Shown here piece after piece: positions 10,956 to 23,991 of a stretch of DNA of 30,991 bases. The notes beneath the pieces are model-generated. The model worked only from the letters and a program-made list of their open reading frames with translations, searched no databases and was not told the DNA's origin. A program made the translations under genes and the position numbers. The DNA comes from an uncultured Saprospiraceae bacterium (GTDB taxonomy: Bacteria > Bacteroidota > Bacteroidia > Chitinophagales > Saprospiraceae), in contig CAKZLT010000687.1 in NCBI GenBank assembly GCA_937127195.1, positions 1-30,991 on the forward strand, in the 5' to 3' direction. Each line of letters opens with the position of its first letter. The stretch's first letter is position 1.

Positions 10956-11227
10956 ACCTTTTAGTTTGATAATTACTGATTTTAAATCATTAACTTGACT
11001 GATAAGTTTCTTGAATATAAATAATTGTGTAAAACGGATAATTATTAGTCTTTAATTATTTTATATATTAATATAACGATTATTATATACTTAACATTTT
11101 GCTACTCGTATTTTCAAGTAAAACAATTGTTAATAATTCAAATTTAACATCAACTAGACAGAAAAGTGTTTAAATTATACCGTTTTTTGCGAAGTTGATT
11201 AACCATTTTTATAAAAATATGAAAAAT

Positions 11228-12301
11228 ATGAAAAAAATAATTCTACTATTATCCATTTTAACAATTTCTCTCAATACAATTATTGGGCAGACTTTTATAG
11301 AGCCTTGCAAATACGGTCAACCATTAATTAATGCCGTTCGCATTGCTTACAAGCCGAATAACACGATGGGTTACAATACTGCGAGAGATACTCTATATTC
11401 TCAGATTGACAATGTTGGAAATGATTTATTTGGAATATATTCCAATTTCAAGGTAACGCTTGACCCTAATGTAGATCCGAGTGTTTCAGCTTTTCAGAAT
11501 GGCTCAGGTATTAATGCTGAACACGTTTACCCTCAATCAAAAGGAGCAGGAAGTGAGCCTATGAGAAGTGATATGCACAACCTCTATCCTTCTAAAGTAA
11601 ACGTGAATAGCGCAAGAGGTAGTTGTAAATTTGGTGAAATTCCAGATGCGAGTACTAGTACTTGGTTTTTTGAAGCAACAGCACAAGGAAATATTCCGTC
11701 TTCTAATATTGATGCGTATAGTGAAAAAAATAATAATACTTGCGTTTTTGAACCACGAGAGAGCAAAAAAGGAGATATTGCAAGAGCAGTTTTTTATTTT
11801 TACGCAATATATCAATCACAAGCGAATAATGAAGACCCAAATTTCTTTGCAAGTCAAAAAGATGACTTATTAGCATGGCATTACGCTGATTTGCCAGACT
11901 CTATTGAATTAGCAAGAAGTGCTCAAATAGCAATGCGTCAAGGTAATGAAAATCCATTTGCATTAGATACTTCTTTGGCGCGTCGTGCTTTCTTTATGGC
12001 AGATGCTTCTTACCCTGCTGGTGATGGTAATTGCTATGATGTGTTGATTTCTAATACTAATGACTTGGCTCAAAATGACTGGATTAAGCTTCGTACGAAT
12101 GTTATTCGAAATGTAATTGAATTGGAAAGTACTAAAAATGAAGGAATTGTTCAGGTATTAGACTTGACAGGTAGAGTATTATTAAATGTAGCTTTAGAAA
12201 ATAATAATCAATTGAATCTTAGTAACTTAAGTGCAGGATTGTATGTTGTTCGAGTATTTAGTGAAGGGCAAAACGCCGTATTTAGAATCTTGAAAGAGTA
12301 G
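11228..12301 (+). CDS. Endonuclease I (EndA/NucM family) extracellular nuclease with T9SS type A sorting domain
   Basis: NAEHVYPQS, SDMHNLYP, NSARG, KGDIARAVFYF and QGNENPF motifs; C-terminal ...LDLTGR...LSNLSAGLYVVRV...ILKE CTD. Start moved from TTG 11195 to ATG 11228 (alternative 11219). Confidence 0.9.
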   Translation: MKKIILLLSILTISLNTIIGQTFIEPCKYGQPLINAVRIAYKPNNTMGYNTARDTLYSQIDNVGNDLFGIYSNFKVTLDPNVDPSVSAFQNGSGINAEHVYPQSKGAGSEPMRSDMHNLYPSKVNVNSARGSCKFGEIPDASTSTWFFEATAQGNIPSSNIDAYSEKNNNTCVFEPRESKKGDIARAVFYFYAIYQSQANNEDPNFFASQKDDLLAWHYADLPDSIELARSAQIAMRQGNENPFALDTSLARRAFFMADASYPAGDGNCYDVLISNTNDLAQNDWIKLRTNVIRNVIELESTKNEGIVQVLDLTGRVLLNVALENNNQLNLSNLSAGLYVVRVFSEGQNAVFRILKE

Positions 12302-12711: not shown

Positions 12712-15700
12712 CTACTCATTTACCACGATACGCTCCAAATTAGTCCAATCTTTCAACTCATCTGTATAGTATAAGTAAGCACTGGAAGCAGGCGCATCAA
12801 ACGAGCCAGCAATATCCGCTTTCAAATCTAAATTGATAATGCGCTCCTCGGAAGGCTTCATTTGACGATAATAAAAGACTAAATTATTACCAATCACTTC
12901 ATAGAAATCAAAAGCTTTTTTATCCAATAACTCCTTCAATTGCCATGGTTGAGCCGTCAAACCAGCAGGTAAACCAACAATTGCCATCGTCATCGGTTGA
13001 CCTTCTGCAGTACTGTTTGTCAAAGTTGTTTTTAGGCGAACCGTTTCACCTACTTTGATTTTCGTTTTAGTAATTTTGGTATTTAACTTCACCACACATT
13101 CTTTTTGAGAATTAGGTAATGCAGTCGAATAATTCATGGCTACCGTATAAGGAAGAGCCGTTTTAGTATTTGAAAATTTAACTTCGATATCATTTTTCTT
13201 AGAAGACATGAAAGACTCTAAACCAGCCAGAACGATAGGCTCTTGATGACCTTTTTCGTAATTGAATGTTTTAGCTTTTTTACCATTAACAAAAACGTCA
13301 ATTGTGCCTGATTCGTCAGTGCGCTTGCTAAATTTGGCGAAAGCCACCAAAGCACGCAACGCCAAAACGGTACTATTGGTAGAGGCATAGCCACCAAAGC
13401 TACTTCTACTTTTCTTAATAAAATCCATGCAGTTCTTCAATTTCGTACGGTCTGGATTTTTACTTTTCATGGTTGCCAATGCCGCCAAAGCCGCTGTTTC
13501 GATGCGTAAAGCATTTCCAGAAGAACCAGGAGCCGATTTGTGACTACTGCCATGTTTCCAAGCACCTTCATCTTCCTGAATTGCCATCAATAAATCTAAG
13601 ATAGCCTGTCCGCGCGTTTCATCTTTTCTATTAAAAAGAATGTTAGCCACCAAACCTAACTGATATGGATTCTTAGTCTTTTTAGCTTCGGCATAAGCAA
13701 AATCAACTTCCGTTTGAATATCCGTGAAATTCGCTTCACTCAATGCCCAAGTAATGTAAATACTCATCGTTTCGTTGTTGGTTAAACCAAACTGATGCAA
13801 GGCACGCGGATTGCGTTTGAACTGCCCCATTCCGTCTCTGCGCTTCATTAGCCATTCAGTTGTACGATTAATCATTGCATCATCAACGCCATCATAAACC
13901 TTCTTCATATCCACGAATTCCATCAAACCGTAAGCGGTTAAACCTTCGTGTCCAGGGTCGCCACCAAACCATTCGAAACCACCTGAAGCAGACTCGTAAC
14001 CTGCCAAACGCTTATAACCAGCAGCAATAAACTGTTTGGCTCTTGCCGAAATATCAGGTTTTGCTTGATTGGTTTCTTGCAAATAATTCAAGACCAAAAT
14101 ATTCGGATAAGTCGAAGATGAAGTTTGCTCAAAACAGCCACTCGGTTGTCTCAACATCGATTCTAGCCCCGAAAGCATATCACTCATCGCTGAAGGATAA
14201 GCAGTTACATAAGCATCTAATGAGCCATCAACCATATTGCTAATATCAAAAGGATAAGATTTACTCATTGCTTCTCCTGACATCGCAACCGATACAGGGA
14301 ATCCTTTTGAAATGACGGTCAAAGACTTTTCTATTTCGTCATTAAAACCACTGCTTTTGAAAGCTATTGATATTTTATCAGCTTTTCCACGCGTTTTTAC
14401 ATCGAAAGCTAAGTATTGTGTTTTGGCTTGTCCTGCTTTTAAGGTTGCGCTAGTAGGTAAATTACCTTTTGGCGAAAGCCCTTTAGGATACTTAATATCT
14501 AAATCACCTTTAATTGTTTTTTTAGTATTATTGACTAAAGTCAAAGGAATTTTTACTACATCTTCCGTGATTACTTCAATCGGTAATTTTGCCGAAAGGC
14601 TAAATGGTAATTGCGTGAAAAATTGCTTTTCTGCGCGTCCAATCATTCCATCAACAGCAAAACCTTCTGCTGTAATTTTGAACGAAGTCACTGCGTCCGA
14701 ATTATAAAATTCTAAGACTGCTTTTCCTTTTCTATCAATTTTGACATTTCCGTTCCAGTAAGTGGTACTTCTAAAATCTGTGCGTTTTTCAATTACTTCA
14801 TCTCTATCATAAGCTGGACCCGAAAACTCTCTGGCTCTATAAAACTTACGATTTCTATTGCTACGAGCTAATTTTTGAATGCGCCTTCTTTTTGGCAAGT
14901 CAAAGTTTCTATTGATAGGAATAGAACGAAGTTCTCTTTCATCATCATGGTTACTATCTCTAGCATTCAATTTGAAACGAACAGGCAGATTATAACGAAC
15001 TCTTACAGGACGACCTCTTTGCTGACCTGGCGTGAATTTTTTAGGAAGTGCATTTAGTGTGTTTAAAGCAGCTAATGCTTCATTTCCAGCACCTCCACCA
15101 ATATCTCTAAGTACCTTTGCATTGACTACTGAACCGTCCGTATCTACGACAAAACTCACTACTACTAAGCCTTCGATATTATTCTCTTTAGCGATATTCG
15201 GATAACGTAAATGCTTATAAACGTGTTTTAAAAGGTTTTCTTCTGTGCATCGTTTGCGTTCTTGATTAGTTGCTAAGTCGCCACAAGTAGGAAATGTTGG
15301 CATTGTCTCGACAATGCTAAAAATTTCTTCAATAGCTTCTTCTTCTATTTCTTCTGCTTCTGCAAATACATCTATTTTGGCATCAGCATTAATATCCATA
15401 TCCTCTAAAAGAACCCTTCTATCTTTTGCAAATCGGTTATCTACCACTTTCTTTTTAGCATCTTCCATGACGGCTAGCCTTTTCATTTCTTTTGCCTTGC
15501 GTACTTCACGTTTTGCTTGCGGTCTTTTTTGACGTTTTTCAGCCTCCATTTTTGCCAAATTCTTTATTTCATTTCTAGCTACTTTTTCTTTTACAGCCAA
15601 AAGAGCAGGTTTCGGCGGACGAGGAGCAATAGCTACATTTTCTACAATTTCTTCTTTATCAAAAGCTACATCATCAAATGCAATATTTTCTTCGGTTTCC

Positions 15701-17727
15701 TCGTCTGGTACTTCTTCAATAGCAGGTGGTTCAGGAATGCCTCTTCGTGCGCGGTCACGTTTTTGCTTAGATACCAATTCTCTATAACGTCTTTGGCGAA
15801 TAGCCAACTCTTCCTGCATATCAATATTATACTTGCTAGAATAGCCATAAGCATAAGTAGTGCGTGTATCATAGCCTTTTTTAGAAATGGTTAATAAAGC
15901 GCGATTATTTAATACATAACCATTAAAAGCATAAAGTCCATTTTTATCGGTTATTGTTGTAAATTTTCCATTTTCTAAAGTGACCTTTGCGCCAGCAATT
16001 GGATTATTAGTGCGTGCTTCATATACCTTTCCTGCAATCTCTGCTCGTTCGTTAGGATAACTAATTCTAGGTTGTTTTCCATTACGAATATCCTCCCAAA
16101 CAAAGCGTCTCCAGCCTGAAGTCATTAACAAATAATCCAAGGCTACGTCTGCTTTTTCTTCTTTTTTATTAAAATAAAAATTCGGCTCTTCTATCTTTCC
16201 ACGCAAATCCGCTTCCATAAGCATCCACGAAAGGATATTACTAGATTTATCATCAGCAAAAGTCAATAATTGGTCATCAACCACACTGACCGATAAGTTA
16301 GCAGGCATTGGCATACCGCGTTCATCAGCTACTTTGATGGTCATTTTTACCTTTTCGCGTGGTAAGTATTTCTCTTTATCCGTTTTGATGGAAATATTGA
16401 GTTGTTTGTCTTTATTCACGAATGCCAAACGTTCGGCTCTTTCAATACCTTTACTATCAAAGAGTGTAAAGTGTGCCACACCAATCGGAAAGTATTTGGT
16501 AGGAACAGTTGTTTTGTTTTCTCCTTTTTTAGCATTGATTTTTGTTGAAAAATGCTTTTGACCGCGTACCATTCCGACTAAATATAATTCTTCGTCATGT
16601 GTTGATTTTATATCCAAATAGACTTGCTTCGCGTCAACGTCTCGAACTTGCAGAACATAACCTGCTGGCATAGCTTCTGGTAATTCAAAGGTGTTTTGAA
16701 CGCCTGCTGGTTTGGTGATTTTGACCGTATAAGTTTCATCTTCTGATGGCGTTATCGAAAATGCGCCCATTCCTTGATGATAAGAACTGAAAGAAGAAAT
16801 GGTTTTTCCTTTACTATTCATCAAAACGCCTTCTATATCCGCGGGTTTGCCGAATTCATTGAGTGCTTTAAATGCAACTTTTGAAGCCAAACCAGTAACT
16901 AAATCTCCACCTTCTGGATATAACCTCATTTGAATGTTATTCAATACTATTGGGACAGAACGAGAAATAGATTCAGTTTGCCCTTGATATCTAATCATAA
17001 TATTGAGTATTCCATCATTGGATTTGAGATTTTTAGGTAGATTAAACTTAACCATTGCCTCGCCTTCATTTCCTGTTGAGCTTTTCCCTTTTTTGATTTC
17101 TTTTCCTTCAATTTTGACTACAAAATTGAAATTGTGATTAGCTAAAGGTTGGTTAGCGTTATCTTCAATAGACAATTCGGCAGCCACTTCATCGCCTGAA
17201 CCATAAGCTTTCTTCATAAAATCAAGCTTCATTTTTAATCGTGGTAAGACGACTTTTTGAACGGTGAGTTCTTTTATAAAAATGGCTGGATTTTTATCAT
17301 TTAATAACCAGTTAGTGAATACTTTGACTTTATAAATACCTCCTACGGCATTTTCATCAATCTTAAAATCGCCTTTTGCAATACCATCTTGAGCAATGAT
17401 TTTATATTCTTTTTCGATTGCACCTTTTGGGTTAATCAATTGAATAGAGACAATATCTGATTTATTTGATGCTTTCAATGATTGCCCTTCACGGATATAA
17501 GCACTGAACCAAATCGTCTCGCCTGGTTTGTAAAGTGTTTTATCAAAATGAGCGTAAACACGGTCTTCAGGAAGACTTTCATTGAAAGCACGGAGGTTTT
17601 TAAGAATATCTTCTAATACGGTATTTACTTGTTGTTTGATGAATCGCTGGGTTTGATTGGGCAATGCTGCAAAAGCAATTGAGCCAATCAAAATGAGACT
17701 AAGGAGGGTGATTGCAATTTTTTTCAT
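12712..17727 (-). CDS. Alpha-2-macroglobulin/complement-like thioester protein with inserted carboxypeptidase-regulatory-like and TonB C-terminal domains
   Basis: Sec signal peptide without lipobox Cys; MG-domain motifs (DKTLYKPGET, TDKEKYLPREKV, VSVVD); thioester GCFEQ at 14139-14125; TED helices (GGFEWF, LTAYGL); C-terminal MAIVGLPAG...YYRQM...ASSAYLYY receptor-binding-like domain; TonB_C at about 15324-14968. Confidence 0.9.
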   Translation of the reverse strand: MKKIAITLLSLILIGSIAFAALPNQTQRFIKQQVNTVLEDILKNLRAFNESLPEDRVYAHFDKTLYKPGETIWFSAYIREGQSLKASNKSDIVSIQLINPKGAIEKEYKIIAQDGIAKGDFKIDENAVGGIYKVKVFTNWLLNDKNPAIFIKELTVQKVVLPRLKMKLDFMKKAYGSGDEVAAELSIEDNANQPLANHNFNFVVKIEGKEIKKGKSSTGNEGEAMVKFNLPKNLKSNDGILNIMIRYQGQTESISRSVPIVLNNIQMRLYPEGGDLVTGLASKVAFKALNEFGKPADIEGVLMNSKGKTISSFSSYHQGMGAFSITPSEDETYTVKITKPAGVQNTFELPEAMPAGYVLQVRDVDAKQVYLDIKSTHDEELYLVGMVRGQKHFSTKINAKKGENKTTVPTKYFPIGVAHFTLFDSKGIERAERLAFVNKDKQLNISIKTDKEKYLPREKVKMTIKVADERGMPMPANLSVSVVDDQLLTFADDKSSNILSWMLMEADLRGKIEEPNFYFNKKEEKADVALDYLLMTSGWRRFVWEDIRNGKQPRISYPNERAEIAGKVYEARTNNPIAGAKVTLENGKFTTITDKNGLYAFNGYVLNNRALLTISKKGYDTRTTYAYGYSSKYNIDMQEELAIRQRRYRELVSKQKRDRARRGIPEPPAIEEVPDEETEENIAFDDVAFDKEEIVENVAIAPRPPKPALLAVKEKVARNEIKNLAKMEAEKRQKRPQAKREVRKAKEMKRLAVMEDAKKKVVDNRFAKDRRVLLEDMDINADAKIDVFAEAEEIEEEAIEEIFSIVETMPTFPTCGDLATNQERKRCTEENLLKHVYKHLRYPNIAKENNIEGLVVVSFVVDTDGSVVNAKVLRDIGGGAGNEALAALNTLNALPKKFTPGQQRGRPVRVRYNLPVRFKLNARDSNHDDERELRSIPINRNFDLPKRRRIQKLARSNRNRKFYRAREFSGPAYDRDEVIEKRTDFRSTTYWNGNVKIDRKGKAVLEFYNSDAVTSFKITAEGFAVDGMIGRAEKQFFTQLPFSLSAKLPIEVITEDVVKIPLTLVNNTKKTIKGDLDIKYPKGLSPKGNLPTSATLKAGQAKTQYLAFDVKTRGKADKISIAFKSSGFNDEIEKSLTVISKGFPVSVAMSGEAMSKSYPFDISNMVDGSLDAYVTAYPSAMSDMLSGLESMLRQPSGCFEQTSSSTYPNILVLNYLQETNQAKPDISARAKQFIAAGYKRLAGYESASGGFEWFGGDPGHEGLTAYGLMEFVDMKKVYDGVDDAMINRTTEWLMKRRDGMGQFKRNPRALHQFGLTNNETMSIYITWALSEANFTDIQTEVDFAYAEAKKTKNPYQLGLVANILFNRKDETRGQAILDLLMAIQEDEGAWKHGSSHKSAPGSSGNALRIETAALAALATMKSKNPDRTKLKNCMDFIKKSRSSFGGYASTNSTVLALRALVAFAKFSKRTDESGTIDVFVNGKKAKTFNYEKGHQEPIVLAGLESFMSSKKNDIEVKFSNTKTALPYTVAMNYSTALPNSQKECVVKLNTKITKTKIKVGETVRLKTTLTNSTAEGQPMTMAIVGLPAGLTAQPWQLKELLDKKAFDFYEVIGNNLVFYYRQMKPSEERIINLDLKADIAGSFDAPASSAYLYYTDELKDWTNLERIVVNE

Positions 17728-18007: not shown

Positions 18008-18616
18008 CTAAGCCCTTCCAACACATTTTTCATTGTAATCTTCTGTTATTTCTATTTCATCGCCCTTTCCATACATTTTAAGCTTTAGACGTTCATATAC
18101 CTTAGGGCAATCTTCCAAATATTTCATCATTGCTTTCCTAAAGCCCATTCGTTTGGGTAAATAAAGCAAACCTTGTTTTTTTTGAAAAATCATAAATTTG
18201 GATTTATAAGAAAAATCCATATTAACGTGTTGTGTATAATAGAAAGAATATAGCCGAAGATTTCCTTCTACCTCTAACTTTAAGAAGACATAAGTTTTCT
18301 TCTTTTTAAATATCTTTTTTTCAAGATTTAAGTGGTCAATATGAGAAATAAGTCGAGTCATTTCATTGTTATATTGAAAACAAACTTCTTTAGCTTGATG
18401 AGGCTTGAGTTCTCTTTCTATATCATTAGGATCCAAAAAATGAACTCCAAAATGAATTGACCTTATATCAGGAGTATTTGTTTGTGAAATAGGAATATCG
18501 AACTGGACTTTTAGAGTATCATCAGTAAGGTTTATAAAGTAGCCTTGCACGAATCGTGCAAATGTAGAAGTATGGCACAGAAGGGTGAATACTACAATTA
18601 AATAGATTTTTTGCAT
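18008..18616 (-). CDS. Exported hypothetical protein
   Basis: Signal-peptide-like MQKIYLIVVFTLLCHTSTFA, followed by a GYFINLTDDTL...G.LRLY pattern common in Bacteroidota hypotheticals. Start moved from 18688 to ATG 18616. Confidence 0.7.
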   Translation of the reverse strand: MQKIYLIVVFTLLCHTSTFARFVQGYFINLTDDTLKVQFDIPISQTNTPDIRSIHFGVHFLDPNDIERELKPHQAKEVCFQYNNEMTRLISHIDHLNLEKKIFKKKKTYVFLKLEVEGNLRLYSFYYTQHVNMDFSYKSKFMIFQKKQGLLYLPKRMGFRKAMMKYLEDCPKVYERLKLKMYGKGDEIEITEDYNEKCVGRA

Positions 18617-18631
18617 TTGTTTGTTTGTTTG
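18616..18631. repeat. (TTTG)4 / (CAAA)4 tetranucleotide repeat abutting the likely start codon
   Basis: Minus strand reads ...CAAACAAACAAACAA-ATG. Confidence 0.75.
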
Positions 18632-18698
18632 TATTTGTACTTTTATTTGCTTCGGCTGTTTTCTTTTGTTATTTTTTGTTTCTTTCATTAAAAAATAA

Positions 18699-20445: not shown

Positions 20446-23400
20446 ATGAAAAAAATAACGAGCCTTTTCTTTCTTTTTTACTCCGTTTTTGCGCTGGCAC
20501 AAATGCCTCAACTCGTCATTCAACGCGGACATACTGCGCCTGTAACGGATGTAGTAGTCAGCCAAAAGCACGAATTGGTTATTACAACAAGTTATGACAA
20601 AACAGTTAAGGTTTGGCAAAAGGAAATCGCTAGAGAACTGCGTGCTTACACTGGTTTAATGAAAGGCTTTTTGCCAATACAATTGGCGATGAGTTTTGAT
20701 AAAAATACGGTTTTAGCTTCCTCAACAGGTGGCGCAATTACTCTTATCGACCTTTCTAAAAATGCAATTCAAACGATTGCCGCACCGCTCGATAAAGGCA
20801 TTATTAAATTACAAGCGCACCCAACTAAAGAACAAATTGTTATTGGTTACGAAGATGGAACATTGATTTTGTTTGATTATAAAAATGAAAAAATACTTCA
20901 AAGTTGGGCAGTAGGGGAGAGTGAAATAACAAAAATTCAATTGACTTCAAAAGGACGTTATCTTTTTACACAATCTAAAAAAGGCGCATTTTTGGCTTAT
21001 GATTTAAAAAAGGAGAAAACAATTGGAAGTTTTGCTCAAAACATAGTTGCTTTTAGTGTGAGCCCTGACAATCAAAAACTCTTGACGGTTGCACAAGATA
21101 GTGTTGTTTCTATTTTTAAAATAAAAAAAACAACCTTAAACGCTGCCAAAAAGATTAATACGTTTTGTCGTCAAACATTCTGGACAGCGACCAATGAAGT
21201 TTTACTCATTAATAAAAAATTTCAACTCGAAAAACTGAATGTAATTACTTTTGAAACCAAAACTGTTTCGTTTTCATTACCACGTTTTTATTGTTTAAAA
21301 ATAGAAAACAACGAATTGTATTACAATCAAGGTCCAACCCTAAAAACAGCTAATATTACTAATTTTGAACCTAAAAATACTTATAAGGGCTTTGTTGGAA
21401 ATGTTTATACGAGTAATATTAATGCGATTACTTTTCAAAAGAATGGTAGAAATATCATTGCTGGTGGTGGCGAAAAAGCCATTCAGTTTTGGGGCGAAAC
21501 CAATTATGAGACCATTCCTGTCGGTTACGAAATCAATAAACTGAAACTCAGCAAGGACGGAAAATGGCTATTGTGTAGCGGAACAGGAAAGCAATTTCAT
21601 TTGATAGATGTCGAAAAACGAGCCATTCAACAGGTTTATAAAGGACATTCTAAAGGCTTAATGGAGGTAGATTTTCTGGGAGAAGACCGAATAGTGAGTG
21701 TTAGTAAAGACAAAACGCTCAAGGTCTGGTCAATGGATTCGGCTTCGATTATCCATGATTTGAAGATGCATAATGCCTATATTTATGCTGTGGCAACAGA
21801 TGGTAACAAGATAGTTTCTGGAGACTCGAAAGGTTTAATTGTGGCTTGGAATGCTACGACGGGCGATACCATTTATACGATTCAAAATGATAAAAGCACC
21901 GTTTATGACTTGACTTTTTCGGAAGATGGAAAGACCGTTTTTGCAACTTTTGATAATGGTGATGTTTGGAGTTGGGATGATTTTCATAAGATTGATTTTC
22001 GTAAGAATTTTTCGGAAACGGTAAAACCTTCTTTTAAAATGTTGGGTGAAAATATTGTAACACTTCAAAAAAATAAAACTTTAACCAATGGCTTGATTTC
22101 GATTCAATCTGATTTTTTTAAAAATAAAAAAGAAGAAAAGAAAGGCTTTTCTATAGAAAACGAAAGCGGAATCAATGACTTTCAATGGAGCGATGACCAA
22201 CAGTTTTTGGCGTCAGCGGATGGAGATAATGCGATTCGATTGTATAATTTTAAGAATAATAAACTACTCGCGACTTGCTACACTTTGGGTAACAAAAATT
22301 GGGCAATCGTTACACCTGATGGGCTTTTTGATGCGTCTGCCAATGGTATGAATTGGCTGCATTACGCGCATTTTAATGAAGCGTTGCCACTTGACCAACT
22401 CAAAGAACGTTATTACGAACCTGACCTTTTACAAAAGCTATTAGGTTATAATGAAGAACCTTTGCGCAATCCTGCGGCGTTTGGTTCGGTAGAGTTATTT
22501 CCAAAAACGAAATGGACACTTTCGGATAATTTTATTGCAAATTTGGAGCTTTTGCCACGAAATGGCGGAATCGGAAAAGTCAGCATTTTTATTAATAAAA
22601 AAGAAATCATCGCGGATGCGAACCCCGAGCGATTGACTAACTTAGAGATTAACCTCAATCCTTATCGAAAATATCTGCTCAACGATACGACGAACCAAAT
22701 TAGCCTTCAAGTTTACAATGAAAAAGGCTGGTTACACAGCGGTTTTTTAACTAAAAACTACAAAAACAAAATCAACGCAAGAGGGACAAACACCGCTACG
22801 AATAAACCGTTAATACTCAAAAAAAGACATAAACCGACTTTTTATGCGTTGATTATCGGAACGTCAGATTATCGTGGTGAAGCATTAGATTTGAGTTTTG
22901 CGGATAAAGACGCGGCAGATATTGCAAATGCTTTAGAATTGGCAGGACAATCGCTTTTTGGCGCAGCAAACACGAAAGTAGAATTATTGAATACGTCGCA
23001 ATCCAAAGAAAAACAGCCTTCTAAAGAAAATATCAAAGCGGCTTTTGAAGTCATTGCTCAAGAAGCGAAGGCAGAAGATGTGTTTGTATTATACCTTTCG
23101 GGGCATGGTGTGAATTATGGTTCTCCGAATAGTCAGTTCTACTATTTGACAAAATCAATCGCTTCTGAAGAATTGGGCGATGATAATATCAGAACGAATT
23201 ACACGATTTCGAGTGAAGAATTTACAGCACAACTCAAAAATATTGCTGCCCAAAAGCAAATTATGATGCTTGATGCTTGTTCGTCTGGTAGCTTAGTTCA
23301 GAATATGTTATCGCAATCACGAAGCCTTTCTTCGAGCCAAAAACGCGCTTTGGACAGAATGAAAGACCGTGCTGGTGTATTCATTTTGGCAGGAAGTGCG

Positions 23401-23991
23401 GCGAATAAAGTGAGTTATGAAGCGTCGCAATTTGGTCAAGGATTGTTGACTTATAGTTTACTTTCGGGTATTCGAGGTGGTGCGCTTCGCGAGAATGAAT
23501 TTGTGGATGTGATGCAATTATTTCAATATGCGGCAGATAAAGTACCCGAATTGGCTGCCGTAATTGGTGGCGTTCAGCGTCCCGTAGTGGCTACTCCAAC
23601 TGGTACAAATAGTTTTGATATTGGTCAAATCACGGATAGCGTTCGATATAAAATACCTTTGGAAGAAGTGAAGCCACTTTTTATAAAAAGCAACTTTCAA
23701 CATGAAAAGGATTACGAAGATTTGATAGATTTGAGTGACGCGCTGGATGAGACTTTTAAGACGATTAGCGACGATTCGGATGCTAGTATTTTATTTTTAA
23801 ATGTAAAAAAATACCCCAAGGCGTATTCTATTAAAGGACGTTATCATAAAAATTCGGATGGAATGCTAGTTTTGAAGGCTAAGTTATTGAAAGATAAAAA
23901 AGCAATTGGTGACTTTGAAATCACAGAAAATACGGAAACTGAGTTGATTGATGGCGTTTTGGAAGCGGTAATGGAGTTGATTAATGAGTGA
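20446..23991 (+). CDS. Exported WD40-repeat protein with C-terminal caspase-family (peptidase C14) domain
   Basis: Signal peptide ending ALA-Q; many GH...WD-like repeats; catalytic dyad YLSGHG (His 23104-23106) and MLDACSSG (Cys 23278-23280); later G.LTY.LL and VQRP motifs. Confidence 0.9.
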   Translation: MKKITSLFFLFYSVFALAQMPQLVIQRGHTAPVTDVVVSQKHELVITTSYDKTVKVWQKEIARELRAYTGLMKGFLPIQLAMSFDKNTVLASSTGGAITLIDLSKNAIQTIAAPLDKGIIKLQAHPTKEQIVIGYEDGTLILFDYKNEKILQSWAVGESEITKIQLTSKGRYLFTQSKKGAFLAYDLKKEKTIGSFAQNIVAFSVSPDNQKLLTVAQDSVVSIFKIKKTTLNAAKKINTFCRQTFWTATNEVLLINKKFQLEKLNVITFETKTVSFSLPRFYCLKIENNELYYNQGPTLKTANITNFEPKNTYKGFVGNVYTSNINAITFQKNGRNIIAGGGEKAIQFWGETNYETIPVGYEINKLKLSKDGKWLLCSGTGKQFHLIDVEKRAIQQVYKGHSKGLMEVDFLGEDRIVSVSKDKTLKVWSMDSASIIHDLKMHNAYIYAVATDGNKIVSGDSKGLIVAWNATTGDTIYTIQNDKSTVYDLTFSEDGKTVFATFDNGDVWSWDDFHKIDFRKNFSETVKPSFKMLGENIVTLQKNKTLTNGLISIQSDFFKNKKEEKKGFSIENESGINDFQWSDDQQFLASADGDNAIRLYNFKNNKLLATCYTLGNKNWAIVTPDGLFDASANGMNWLHYAHFNEALPLDQLKERYYEPDLLQKLLGYNEEPLRNPAAFGSVELFPKTKWTLSDNFIANLELLPRNGGIGKVSIFINKKEIIADANPERLTNLEINLNPYRKYLLNDTTNQISLQVYNEKGWLHSGFLTKNYKNKINARGTNTATNKPLILKKRHKPTFYALIIGTSDYRGEALDLSFADKDAADIANALELAGQSLFGAANTKVELLNTSQSKEKQPSKENIKAAFEVIAQEAKAEDVFVLYLSGHGVNYGSPNSQFYYLTKSIASEELGDDNIRTNYTISSEEFTAQLKNIAAQKQIMMLDACSSGSLVQNMLSQSRSLSSSQKRALDRMKDRAGVFILAGSAANKVSYEASQFGQGLLTYSLLSGIRGGALRENEFVDVMQLFQYAADKVPELAAVIGGVQRPVVATPTGTNSFDIGQITDSVRYKIPLEEVKPLFIKSNFQHEKDYEDLIDLSDALDETFKTISDDSDASILFLNVKKYPKAYSIKGRYHKNSDGMLVLKAKLLKDKKAIGDFEITENTETELIDGVLEAVMELINE

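Follow-up and report, generated by a model that had tools for sequence, protein, structure and literature searches.

The window analyzed here, a 30,991-nucleotide stretch of contig CAKZLT010000687.1 from an uncultured Saprospiraceae bacterium, contains on its minus strand (12712..17727) a gene for a thioester-containing protein (TEP) of the alpha-2-macroglobulin/complement superfamily, and this protein has a histidine, His1311, where the catalytic His lies in the animal proteins C3, C4B, TEP1, CD109, and A2ML1. As a positional claim drawn from alignments, the homology of His1311 to the acyl-imidazole-forming His of C3, C4B, TEP1, and A2ML1 is well supported. Furthermore, the His is a family-wide feature rather than a peculiarity of the Saprospiraceae gene, and the position alternates recurrently between His and Asp among the bacterial relatives. 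This alternation is more informative than one residue in one gene and is new within the literature searched (open-access publications), in which no description of this bacterial family or of its His/Asp site was found. Chemically, complement opsonization centers on a His-catalyzed thioester, which until now has been regarded as an animal feature, known from C3, C4B, the insect TEPs, CD109, and A2ML1.

The open frame of 5016 bases specifies a protein of 1671 residues (P0001), and an identical protein is present in a public collection (P0002). The assignment of the whole gene to the superfamily is based on the open frame and on Pfam matches to MG2, A2M_BRD, A2M, and TED_complement, with a weak match to A2M_recep/bMG10. 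The thioester domain (TED), an alpha/alpha toroid of residues 1180-1462 (13342..14190; here and below, features of the protein lie on the minus strand), matches PF07678 TED_complement with an E value of 4e-36. Within it, the thioester motif GCFEQ, residues 1197-1201, was located by script in the translation at 14125..14139, with Cys1198 encoded by 14136-14134 and Gln1201 by 14127-14125. His1311, whose codon is CAT (13795..13797), lies in the sequence ...NPRALHQFG..., 113 residues past Cys1198 and 8 past the Phe of GQF. It belongs to a conserved loop motif, A-L-H-Q-F-G (residues 1309-1314; 13786..13803), which was recognized from column statistics and falls in a loop of the AlphaFold2 (AF2) model; this motif holds the position that determines reactivity. 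An intact GCFEQ, the His codon at 13797-13795, and the two spacings had been reported in a preliminary description of this DNA, and the translation and the script bear out every one of these coordinates.

The equivalence of His1311 to the animal His was examined first by single-sequence HMMER searches of the PDB sequences, in which CD109 ranked highest (E 5e-28), followed by human A2M (1e-23) and then by A2ML1, TEP1, C4, and C3, with E. coli YfhM at 3e-3. Residue-level alignments were taken from the five best matches (CD109, A2M, and TEP1). In these, the residue opposite His1311 is the His of ...GRVIH... in CD109 and the first Asn of ...SGSLLNN... in A2M. The latter is Asn1088 of 6tav_A when counted from the row start, and the preliminary description had correctly placed an Asn there in A2M. 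A short query made from the loop places His1311 opposite the His of both TEP1 alleles (...VWH and ...EYH, then ...QGGL), and the catalytic His of TEP1 has been described (PMC5489563). For C4, a profile was built from 71 family TEDs, with match state 162 corresponding to His1311, and an hmmsearch of this profile against full-length C4A aligned states 38-162 to residues 999-1125, with state 162 at the end of the alignment. Residue 1125 of the C4A precursor is the isotypic Asp (mature Asp1106), which is replaced by His in C4B, and the equivalent residues are His1104 in C3 and His1106 in C4B.

The equivalence to C3 itself follows from the pairing of His1311 with A2M Asn1088, together with the Cys-to-His spacing, which is 113 residues here and about 116 in C3. 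This spacing and the aligned ranges on C3d found in the structure comparison (VIA, below) agree with the C3 string quoted in the preliminary description. The pairing bears on C3 because Harwood et al. (PMC7864068) give Asn1088 of A2M as the counterpart of A2ML1 His1084 and of the His that conveys hydroxyl reactivity in C3 and C4B.

With a sequence identity to the animal TEDs of just 20-29%, and with loops aligning less reliably than any other part at such distances, it might be argued that the His is coincidental and without function, or that the position has been misaligned. This is very improbable. Four independent reference proteins align at His1311, with no local gaps before it; the flanking A-L and F-G are nearly invariant; and the column is limited to His and Asp across hundreds of sequences.

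Predicted structures point in the same direction as the alignments. In the AF2 model of the TED, which has a mean predicted local distance difference test (pLDDT) score of 90.9, His1311 (model residue 162) lies in a loop that follows a short beta hairpin and precedes a helix. A comparison of such a model with animal TEDs had been proposed as a check, and the AlphaFold TED does superpose on C3d, C4Adg, CD109, and TEP1 at 2.1-2.5 Å. By VIA, the best agreement is with CD109 (Z 32.7, root-mean-square deviation 2.1 Å over 276 residues), and comparable values are obtained with C4Adg (Z 30.6, 2.2 Å over 271 residues), C3d (Z about 30, 2.3 Å over about 270 residues), and TEP1r (Z 30.0, 2.5 Å over 271 residues). 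A second AF2 model, of residues 985-1671 (pLDDT 84.9), predicts the order MG7-CUB-TED-CUB-MG8 (MG, macroglobulin), with beta domains flanking the helical TED. In Foldseek searches, this model matches native C3, A2ML1, CD109, egg A2M, and TEP1 with TMq values of 0.70-0.76, native A2ML1 being the top structural match, whereas TMq is 0.36-0.40 for C3b (0.36) and induced A2M. Since the match is to the native forms and not to C3b or induced A2M, the predicted arrangement is native-like, with the thioester shielded; that is, in the model the MG7-CUB-TED-MG8 arrangement is present, with the TED packed as in the native proteins. A look-up in the ESM Atlas returned TED-family clusters and nothing further.

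The family to which the protein belongs is large. More than 4400 matches were obtained among 8000 candidates scored from a 90%-identity collection, and a 50%-identity library contains 5210 clusters at E <= 1e-3, of which 1523 remain at a cut-off of E <= 1e-30. The family, with these roughly 1500 clusters at 50% identity, occurs mostly in lineages of free-living environmental bacteria represented by metagenome-assembled genomes (MAGs), and it is closest to CD109 and A2M. The GCFEQ motif is invariant in the pooled members (257/257). At the column of His1311, these members have Asp in 133 cases, His in 107, and another residue in 17, mostly where the loop is altered; His or Asp is thus found in 240 of the 257. 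Flanking residues of the pattern A-L-[H/D]-x-F-G are nearly invariant in 121 close homologues, with A in 117, L in 116, F in 114, and G in 118.

In 80 species-representative genomes, the column is His in 63, Asp in 16, and Pro in 1. Most of these carriers belong to Saprospiraceae, Chitinophagales, and other Bacteroidia, and some to Myxococcota, Planctomycetota, Burkholderiales, and Acanthopleuribacteraceae. The preliminary description had allowed that the finding would lose its novelty if the His were common in bacterial homologues and already described. The His is indeed common, as the 63 of 80 genomes make plain, but no published description of it was found. The single Pro belongs to a groundwater MAG (L079:3818-4774) in which a stop codon also replaces the thioester Cys (G*FEQ); this copy may represent a pseudogene, reflect an error in sequencing, or contain a recoded codon.

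The His and Asp codons (CAY and GAY) are one base apart, and exchange between them has been recurrent. On a FastTree phylogeny of the family TEDs from which the trait columns had been removed, there are at least 11 changes between His and Asp, and 10, 9, and 7 remain once branches with support below 80, 90, and 95, respectively, are collapsed. The Saprospiraceae protein falls in a clade of 72 leaves (support 94), 67 of which have His. Its own assembly (88.6% complete, 3.5% contamination) encodes two further GCFEQ paralogues, at C516:134-1054 (minus strand) and C269:2047-3018 (plus strand), one with His and one with Asn; in addition, the end of a contig (C712:4314-4532) holds a fragment of a macroglobulin that is more distant and has GCIEQ. 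Among 41 relatives, 10 carry the family in one to three copies each. In these, the orthologue of the Saprospiraceae gene always has His, and the paralogues have either His or a variant loop (with Asn, Tyr, Phe, Arg, or a gap). None of the 10 carriers has both a His and an Asp copy in the manner of a C4A/C4B pair; therefore, His and Asp alternate between lineages rather than as isotypes within one genome. Columns that co-vary most strongly with the site (1315, 1316, 1321, 1400, and others) were considered as evidence of functional coupling, and this was rejected because they track the main clades.

Given these findings, it can be proposed, tentatively, that bacteria own a large, ancient, animal-like thioester family in which a one-base switch at the C4B/C4A site tunes nucleophile preference, so that His members would be reactive toward hydroxyls, and thus toward glycans or hydroxyl-rich targets, and Asp members would be reactive toward amines. 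The residues that alternate in the family column are the same ones that separate hydroxyl-reactive C4B from amine-reactive C4A. By this analogy, the Asp-type members are predicted to prefer amines, as C4A does. If the proposal is correct, the complement-type catalytic His either predates animal complement or arose independently of it.

A different possibility is that the site plays a structural or regulatory role. In that case, His and Asp would tune the formation or stability of the thioester, or the lock between the TED and MG8, the choice of nucleophile would be unchanged, and the protein would be an ordinary amine-reactive trap. A role of this kind was reportedly found for Asn1065 of A2M by Suda, Dolmer and Gettins in 1997. 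Both His and Asp can form hydrogen bonds; GCFEQ is retained in other paralogues in which the position holds Asn, Tyr, Phe, or Arg or the loop is shortened; and the Glu that C3 has two residues after its His is absent here. In addition, when the His was introduced into A2M (N1088H), most of the protein was produced in a collapsed form that lacked the thioester, so the position does affect thioester integrity (PMC7864068). This explanation is nevertheless unlikely, given that the 240 members noted above use precisely the two residues of the C4B/C4A switch, specified by codons one base apart and recurrently exchanged. Furthermore, a natural His at this position has conferred hydroxyl reactivity in every protein tested, namely C3, C4B, and A2ML1 (PMC7864068).

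Among bacterial proteins, the comparison is with the two types of macroglobulin recognized in the literature consulted. Type I is a lipoprotein with a thioester, paired with pbpC, and type II (MagD/YfaS) has no thioester and is encoded in a six-gene mag operon (PMC5764988). Type I proteins use a covalent protease-trap mechanism with a CxEQ thioester (PMC4498604, PMC5764988), and ECAM is listed among the inhibitors that lack the His (PMC7864068). The Saprospiraceae protein resembles type I (ECAM/YfhM and SaA2M) in being bacterial and exported and in having a CxEQ thioester and MG domains. However, the motif is CFEQ here and CLEQ there, and whereas E. coli K-12 yfhM (L101:7327-12288, minus strand) has the lipobox LAGC and abuts pbpC, the Saprospiraceae gene has no signal-peptide Cys and no pbpC neighbor. 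From type II it differs in having the thioester motif and in its surroundings, since no mag-like operon is present in the 30,991-nucleotide window.

The same separation is seen in the TED itself. The family profile reaches human A2M at E 1.3e-42 and A2ML1 at 4e-38, compared with 1.6e-4 for SaA2M and 3.6e-4 for YfhM. When YfhM was aligned to the family profile by hhalign (94% probability), a deletion of 7 residues fell exactly over the ...FKRNPRALH... loop; therefore, YfhM has no residue equivalent to His1311. A thioester without a lipobox and without pbpC, and a TED profile far nearer to human A2M than to SaA2M or YfhM, make the family a third, animal-like group of bacterial macroglobulins.

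Taken together, these results have led to a model for the function of the Saprospiraceae protein. We consider it reasonably probable that it acts as an exported, probably periplasmic, monomeric covalent protease trap in which the His broadens the range of nucleophiles to include hydroxyls as well as amines. The N terminus reads as a signal peptide of about residues 1-21 (17665..17727), whose cleavage site and use in export are deduced from the translation. It contains no Cys, and there is none in the first 25 residues, so that no lipobox is present; at the C terminus, an MG8-type domain stands in place of a type IX secretion system (T9SS) sorting tail. Since the signal peptide is present and both the lipobox and the T9SS tail are absent, the protein is probably exported and periplasmic. 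In the native state, the putative thioester between Cys1198 and Gln1201 would be buried against MG8. Cleavage within a long, exposed, and highly charged insert at the position of the bait region would free the TED, and His1311, if it can reach the thioester after activation, would attack it. The short-lived acyl-imidazole would then hand Gln1201 to the nearest hydroxyl or amine, or else hydrolyze within about a second. Thus, thioester formation, hydroxyl reactivity, the compartment, and the target are all features that we infer from the comparison with known proteins.

The closest precedent for this model is human A2ML1, a monomeric protease inhibitor that has the same His (His1084), which widens conjugation to the Ser, Thr, and Tyr hydroxyls of proteases; the H1084N substitution abolishes its reactivity with glycerol (PMC7864068). 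Monomeric macroglobulins inhibit only by binding covalently, and the His allows A2ML1 to reach proteases without accessible lysines (PMC7864068). Because a monomeric trap must bind its target covalently, hydroxyl reactivity would be useful in that more targets are gained, and the likely use in the Saprospiraceae protein would be the same, an extension of covalent capture to protease Ser, Thr, and Tyr hydroxyls. The two proteins share a monomer-type TEP architecture and a TED with a thioester and the His. They differ in that A2ML1 is found in animal epidermis and has the motif GCGEQ in place of GCFEQ, TED identity is about 23-26%, and the bait region of A2ML1 is short and simple, whereas that of the Saprospiraceae protein is a 500-residue insert with CarboxypepD_reg and TonB_C domains.

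The preliminary description had gone further and suggested that the protein may tag carbohydrate surfaces in the manner of complement rather than act only as a protease trap. In such a scheme, the His would catalyze attachment mainly to the hydroxyls of surface carbohydrates, on prey or competitor cells, on the cell's own peptidoglycan or polysaccharide, or on phage, and the protein would mark or immobilize these surfaces rather than inhibit a protease. The part of this suggestion that holds is the His at the C3/C4B position, which is seen in the alignments with CD109, TEP1, A2M, and C4A; the tagging step is unsupported, since an inhibitor, A2ML1, shares the same His. The scheme is not without attractions. 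Saprospiraceae, Chitinophagales, Myxococcota, and Planctomycetota, in which the family is concentrated, are groups that attack other cells or polymers. What fills the bait position, moreover, is not a simple bait for proteases but binding modules (TonB_C here and Plug in relatives). In addition, C3, C4B, and TEP1, which have the His at this position, use the same chemistry for deposition on surfaces (PMC7864068, PMC5489563).

Several observations make an opsonin of this kind improbable, however. A2ML1 demonstrates that a protease inhibitor can have this His without any conflict, and because the acyl-imidazole lasts less than 1 second in water (PMC7864068), an opsonin would need its target surface close by when it is cleaved. 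A protein with neither a T9SS tail nor a lipobox probably remains in the periplasm, where there would be no obvious foreign glycan surface. No ANATO (anaphylatoxin) or NTR/C345C domain was matched in Pfam, the C terminus being the MG8-type domain, and no convertase-type partner is present; a WD40-caspase encoded in the window (below) has no counterpart within 6 kb of the thioester gene in the 80 relatives searched. In these respects, the protein differs from C3, C4, and C5, which have an anaphylatoxin domain, a C345C domain, and a convertase, and the position of their cleavage site is occupied here by CarboxypepD_reg and TonB_C. CD109 is the best single-sequence match, and CD109 and TEP1 share with the Saprospiraceae protein the TED fold, the aligned His, and, when the insert is left out, the overall length typical of animal TEPs. 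Unlike these two, the Saprospiraceae protein is bacterial and probably periplasmic. CD109 is anchored by glycosylphosphatidylinositol, and TEP1 is an opsonin that acts with LRIM1/APL1C in hemolymph (PMC5489563); no such partners or anchors are found here.

It should be noted that some findings also weigh against a protease trap with a His-broadened range. C3 has a Glu two residues after the His, whereas that position is a conserved Phe in the 121 close homologues. The block of the AF2 model that contains the His-bearing loop has a pLDDT of 81, below that of the rest of the TED. No neighboring gene is conserved across the 80 related loci; furthermore, the periplasmic location would follow solely from a signal peptide that is accompanied by neither a lipobox nor a T9SS tail. 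Finally, introduction of the His into A2M (N1088H) conferred almost no reactivity toward hydroxyls (PMC7864068), and therefore the His, while necessary in C3, C4B, and A2ML1, is not sufficient in every scaffold.

What is added here is a third, very large bacterial group that has an animal-like TED and in which a C4B-type His and a C4A-type Asp have been repeatedly exchanged. The family offers natural His/Asp pairs in which the tuning of thioester chemistry can be investigated, and it also reopens the question of the origin of the animal thioester proteins. The A2M family has been placed in early animals, with a CD109-like ancestor (PMC9156758), and Budd et al. have hypothesized, in the summary of their work given in PMC13069473, a transfer from animals to bacteria. 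If the tentative proposal of an ancient bacterial family is correct, the animal TEPs may instead descend from that family, contrary to an origin from an early-animal CD109-like protein (PMC9156758).

The remaining domains of the protein also fit the superfamily. On the N-terminal side, an MG2 macroglobulin domain (residues 56-138; 17314..17562; PF01835, E 1e-18) and the end of A2M_BRD (residues 435-488; 24.0 bits in Pfam against a cut-off of 22.7) confirm that MG domains, a feature of the A2MF/TEP superfamily, are present. Beyond the bait position lies the A2M (MG7) domain (residues 989-1076; 14500..14763; PF00207, E 5e-10), and in the AF2 model of residues 985-1671 this region folds as a beta domain. 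The C-terminal MG8/receptor-binding-type domain (residues 1551-1657; 12757..13077) has weak Pfam matches to bMG10/A2M_recep and is likewise modeled as a beta domain; in homologues, it is this domain that covers the thioester of the native protein.

Between A2M_BRD and A2M/MG7, the position of the bait region is filled by an insert of roughly 500 residues, and relatives without it have an overall length of about 1450 residues. The stretch at 14881-16045 of the window (residues about 560-950) consists of a CarboxypepD_reg domain, a long low-complexity region of alternating acidic and basic residues, and a complete TonB_C domain. The CarboxypepD_reg-like domain is the first module of the insert (residues 564-624; 15856..16038; PF13620, E 1e-10), and the TonB C-terminal domain (TonB_C) occupies residues 839-920 (14968..15213; PF03544, E 9e-16). 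In relatives, the same site holds TonB_C, the Plug domain of TonB-dependent receptors, PF15976, or no extra module. TonB_C is present in 35 of 222 full-length homologues, that is, in 25 of 91 His-type proteins, 5 of 117 Asp-type proteins, and 5 of the 14 others. It is thus commoner in the His type, but phylogeny confounds the comparison, and therefore no claim is drawn from this distribution.

The neighbors of the thioester gene are a 226-residue open reading frame (ORF), ahcY, and a gene for endonuclease I. The ORF of 226 residues lies directly upstream (18008-18688, minus strand), and its product has a lysine-rich N terminus followed by a hydrophobic segment and belongs to no Pfam family. 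Convergent with the thioester gene, at 11195-12301 on the plus strand, is the endonuclease I homologue, which ends in a T9SS C-terminal sorting domain; therefore, the organism uses the type IX secretion signal that is absent from the thioester protein. Farther away, at 20446-23991 on the plus strand, an exported protein of 1181 residues combines two WD40 propellers with a Peptidase_C14 (caspase) domain.

When six neighbors in the window, including the WD40-caspase and the 226-residue ORF, were searched by tblastn against the 80 related loci with 6-kb flanks, no match was obtained. The WD40-caspase is therefore not a conserved partner, and the idea of a caspase acting as convertase is weakened for the family, although it may hold in this one genome. 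Clustering of all flanking ORFs revealed only clade-local synteny. In 33 of the 80 loci, the thioester gene has just downstream of it an ORF of roughly 141 residues (for example, L045:7653-8078, plus strand) that matches no Pfam family. All 33 belong to one Bacteroidia clade with the loop ...AYHDFGRI, and the ORF may encode a clade-specific partner or may reflect plain shared synteny.

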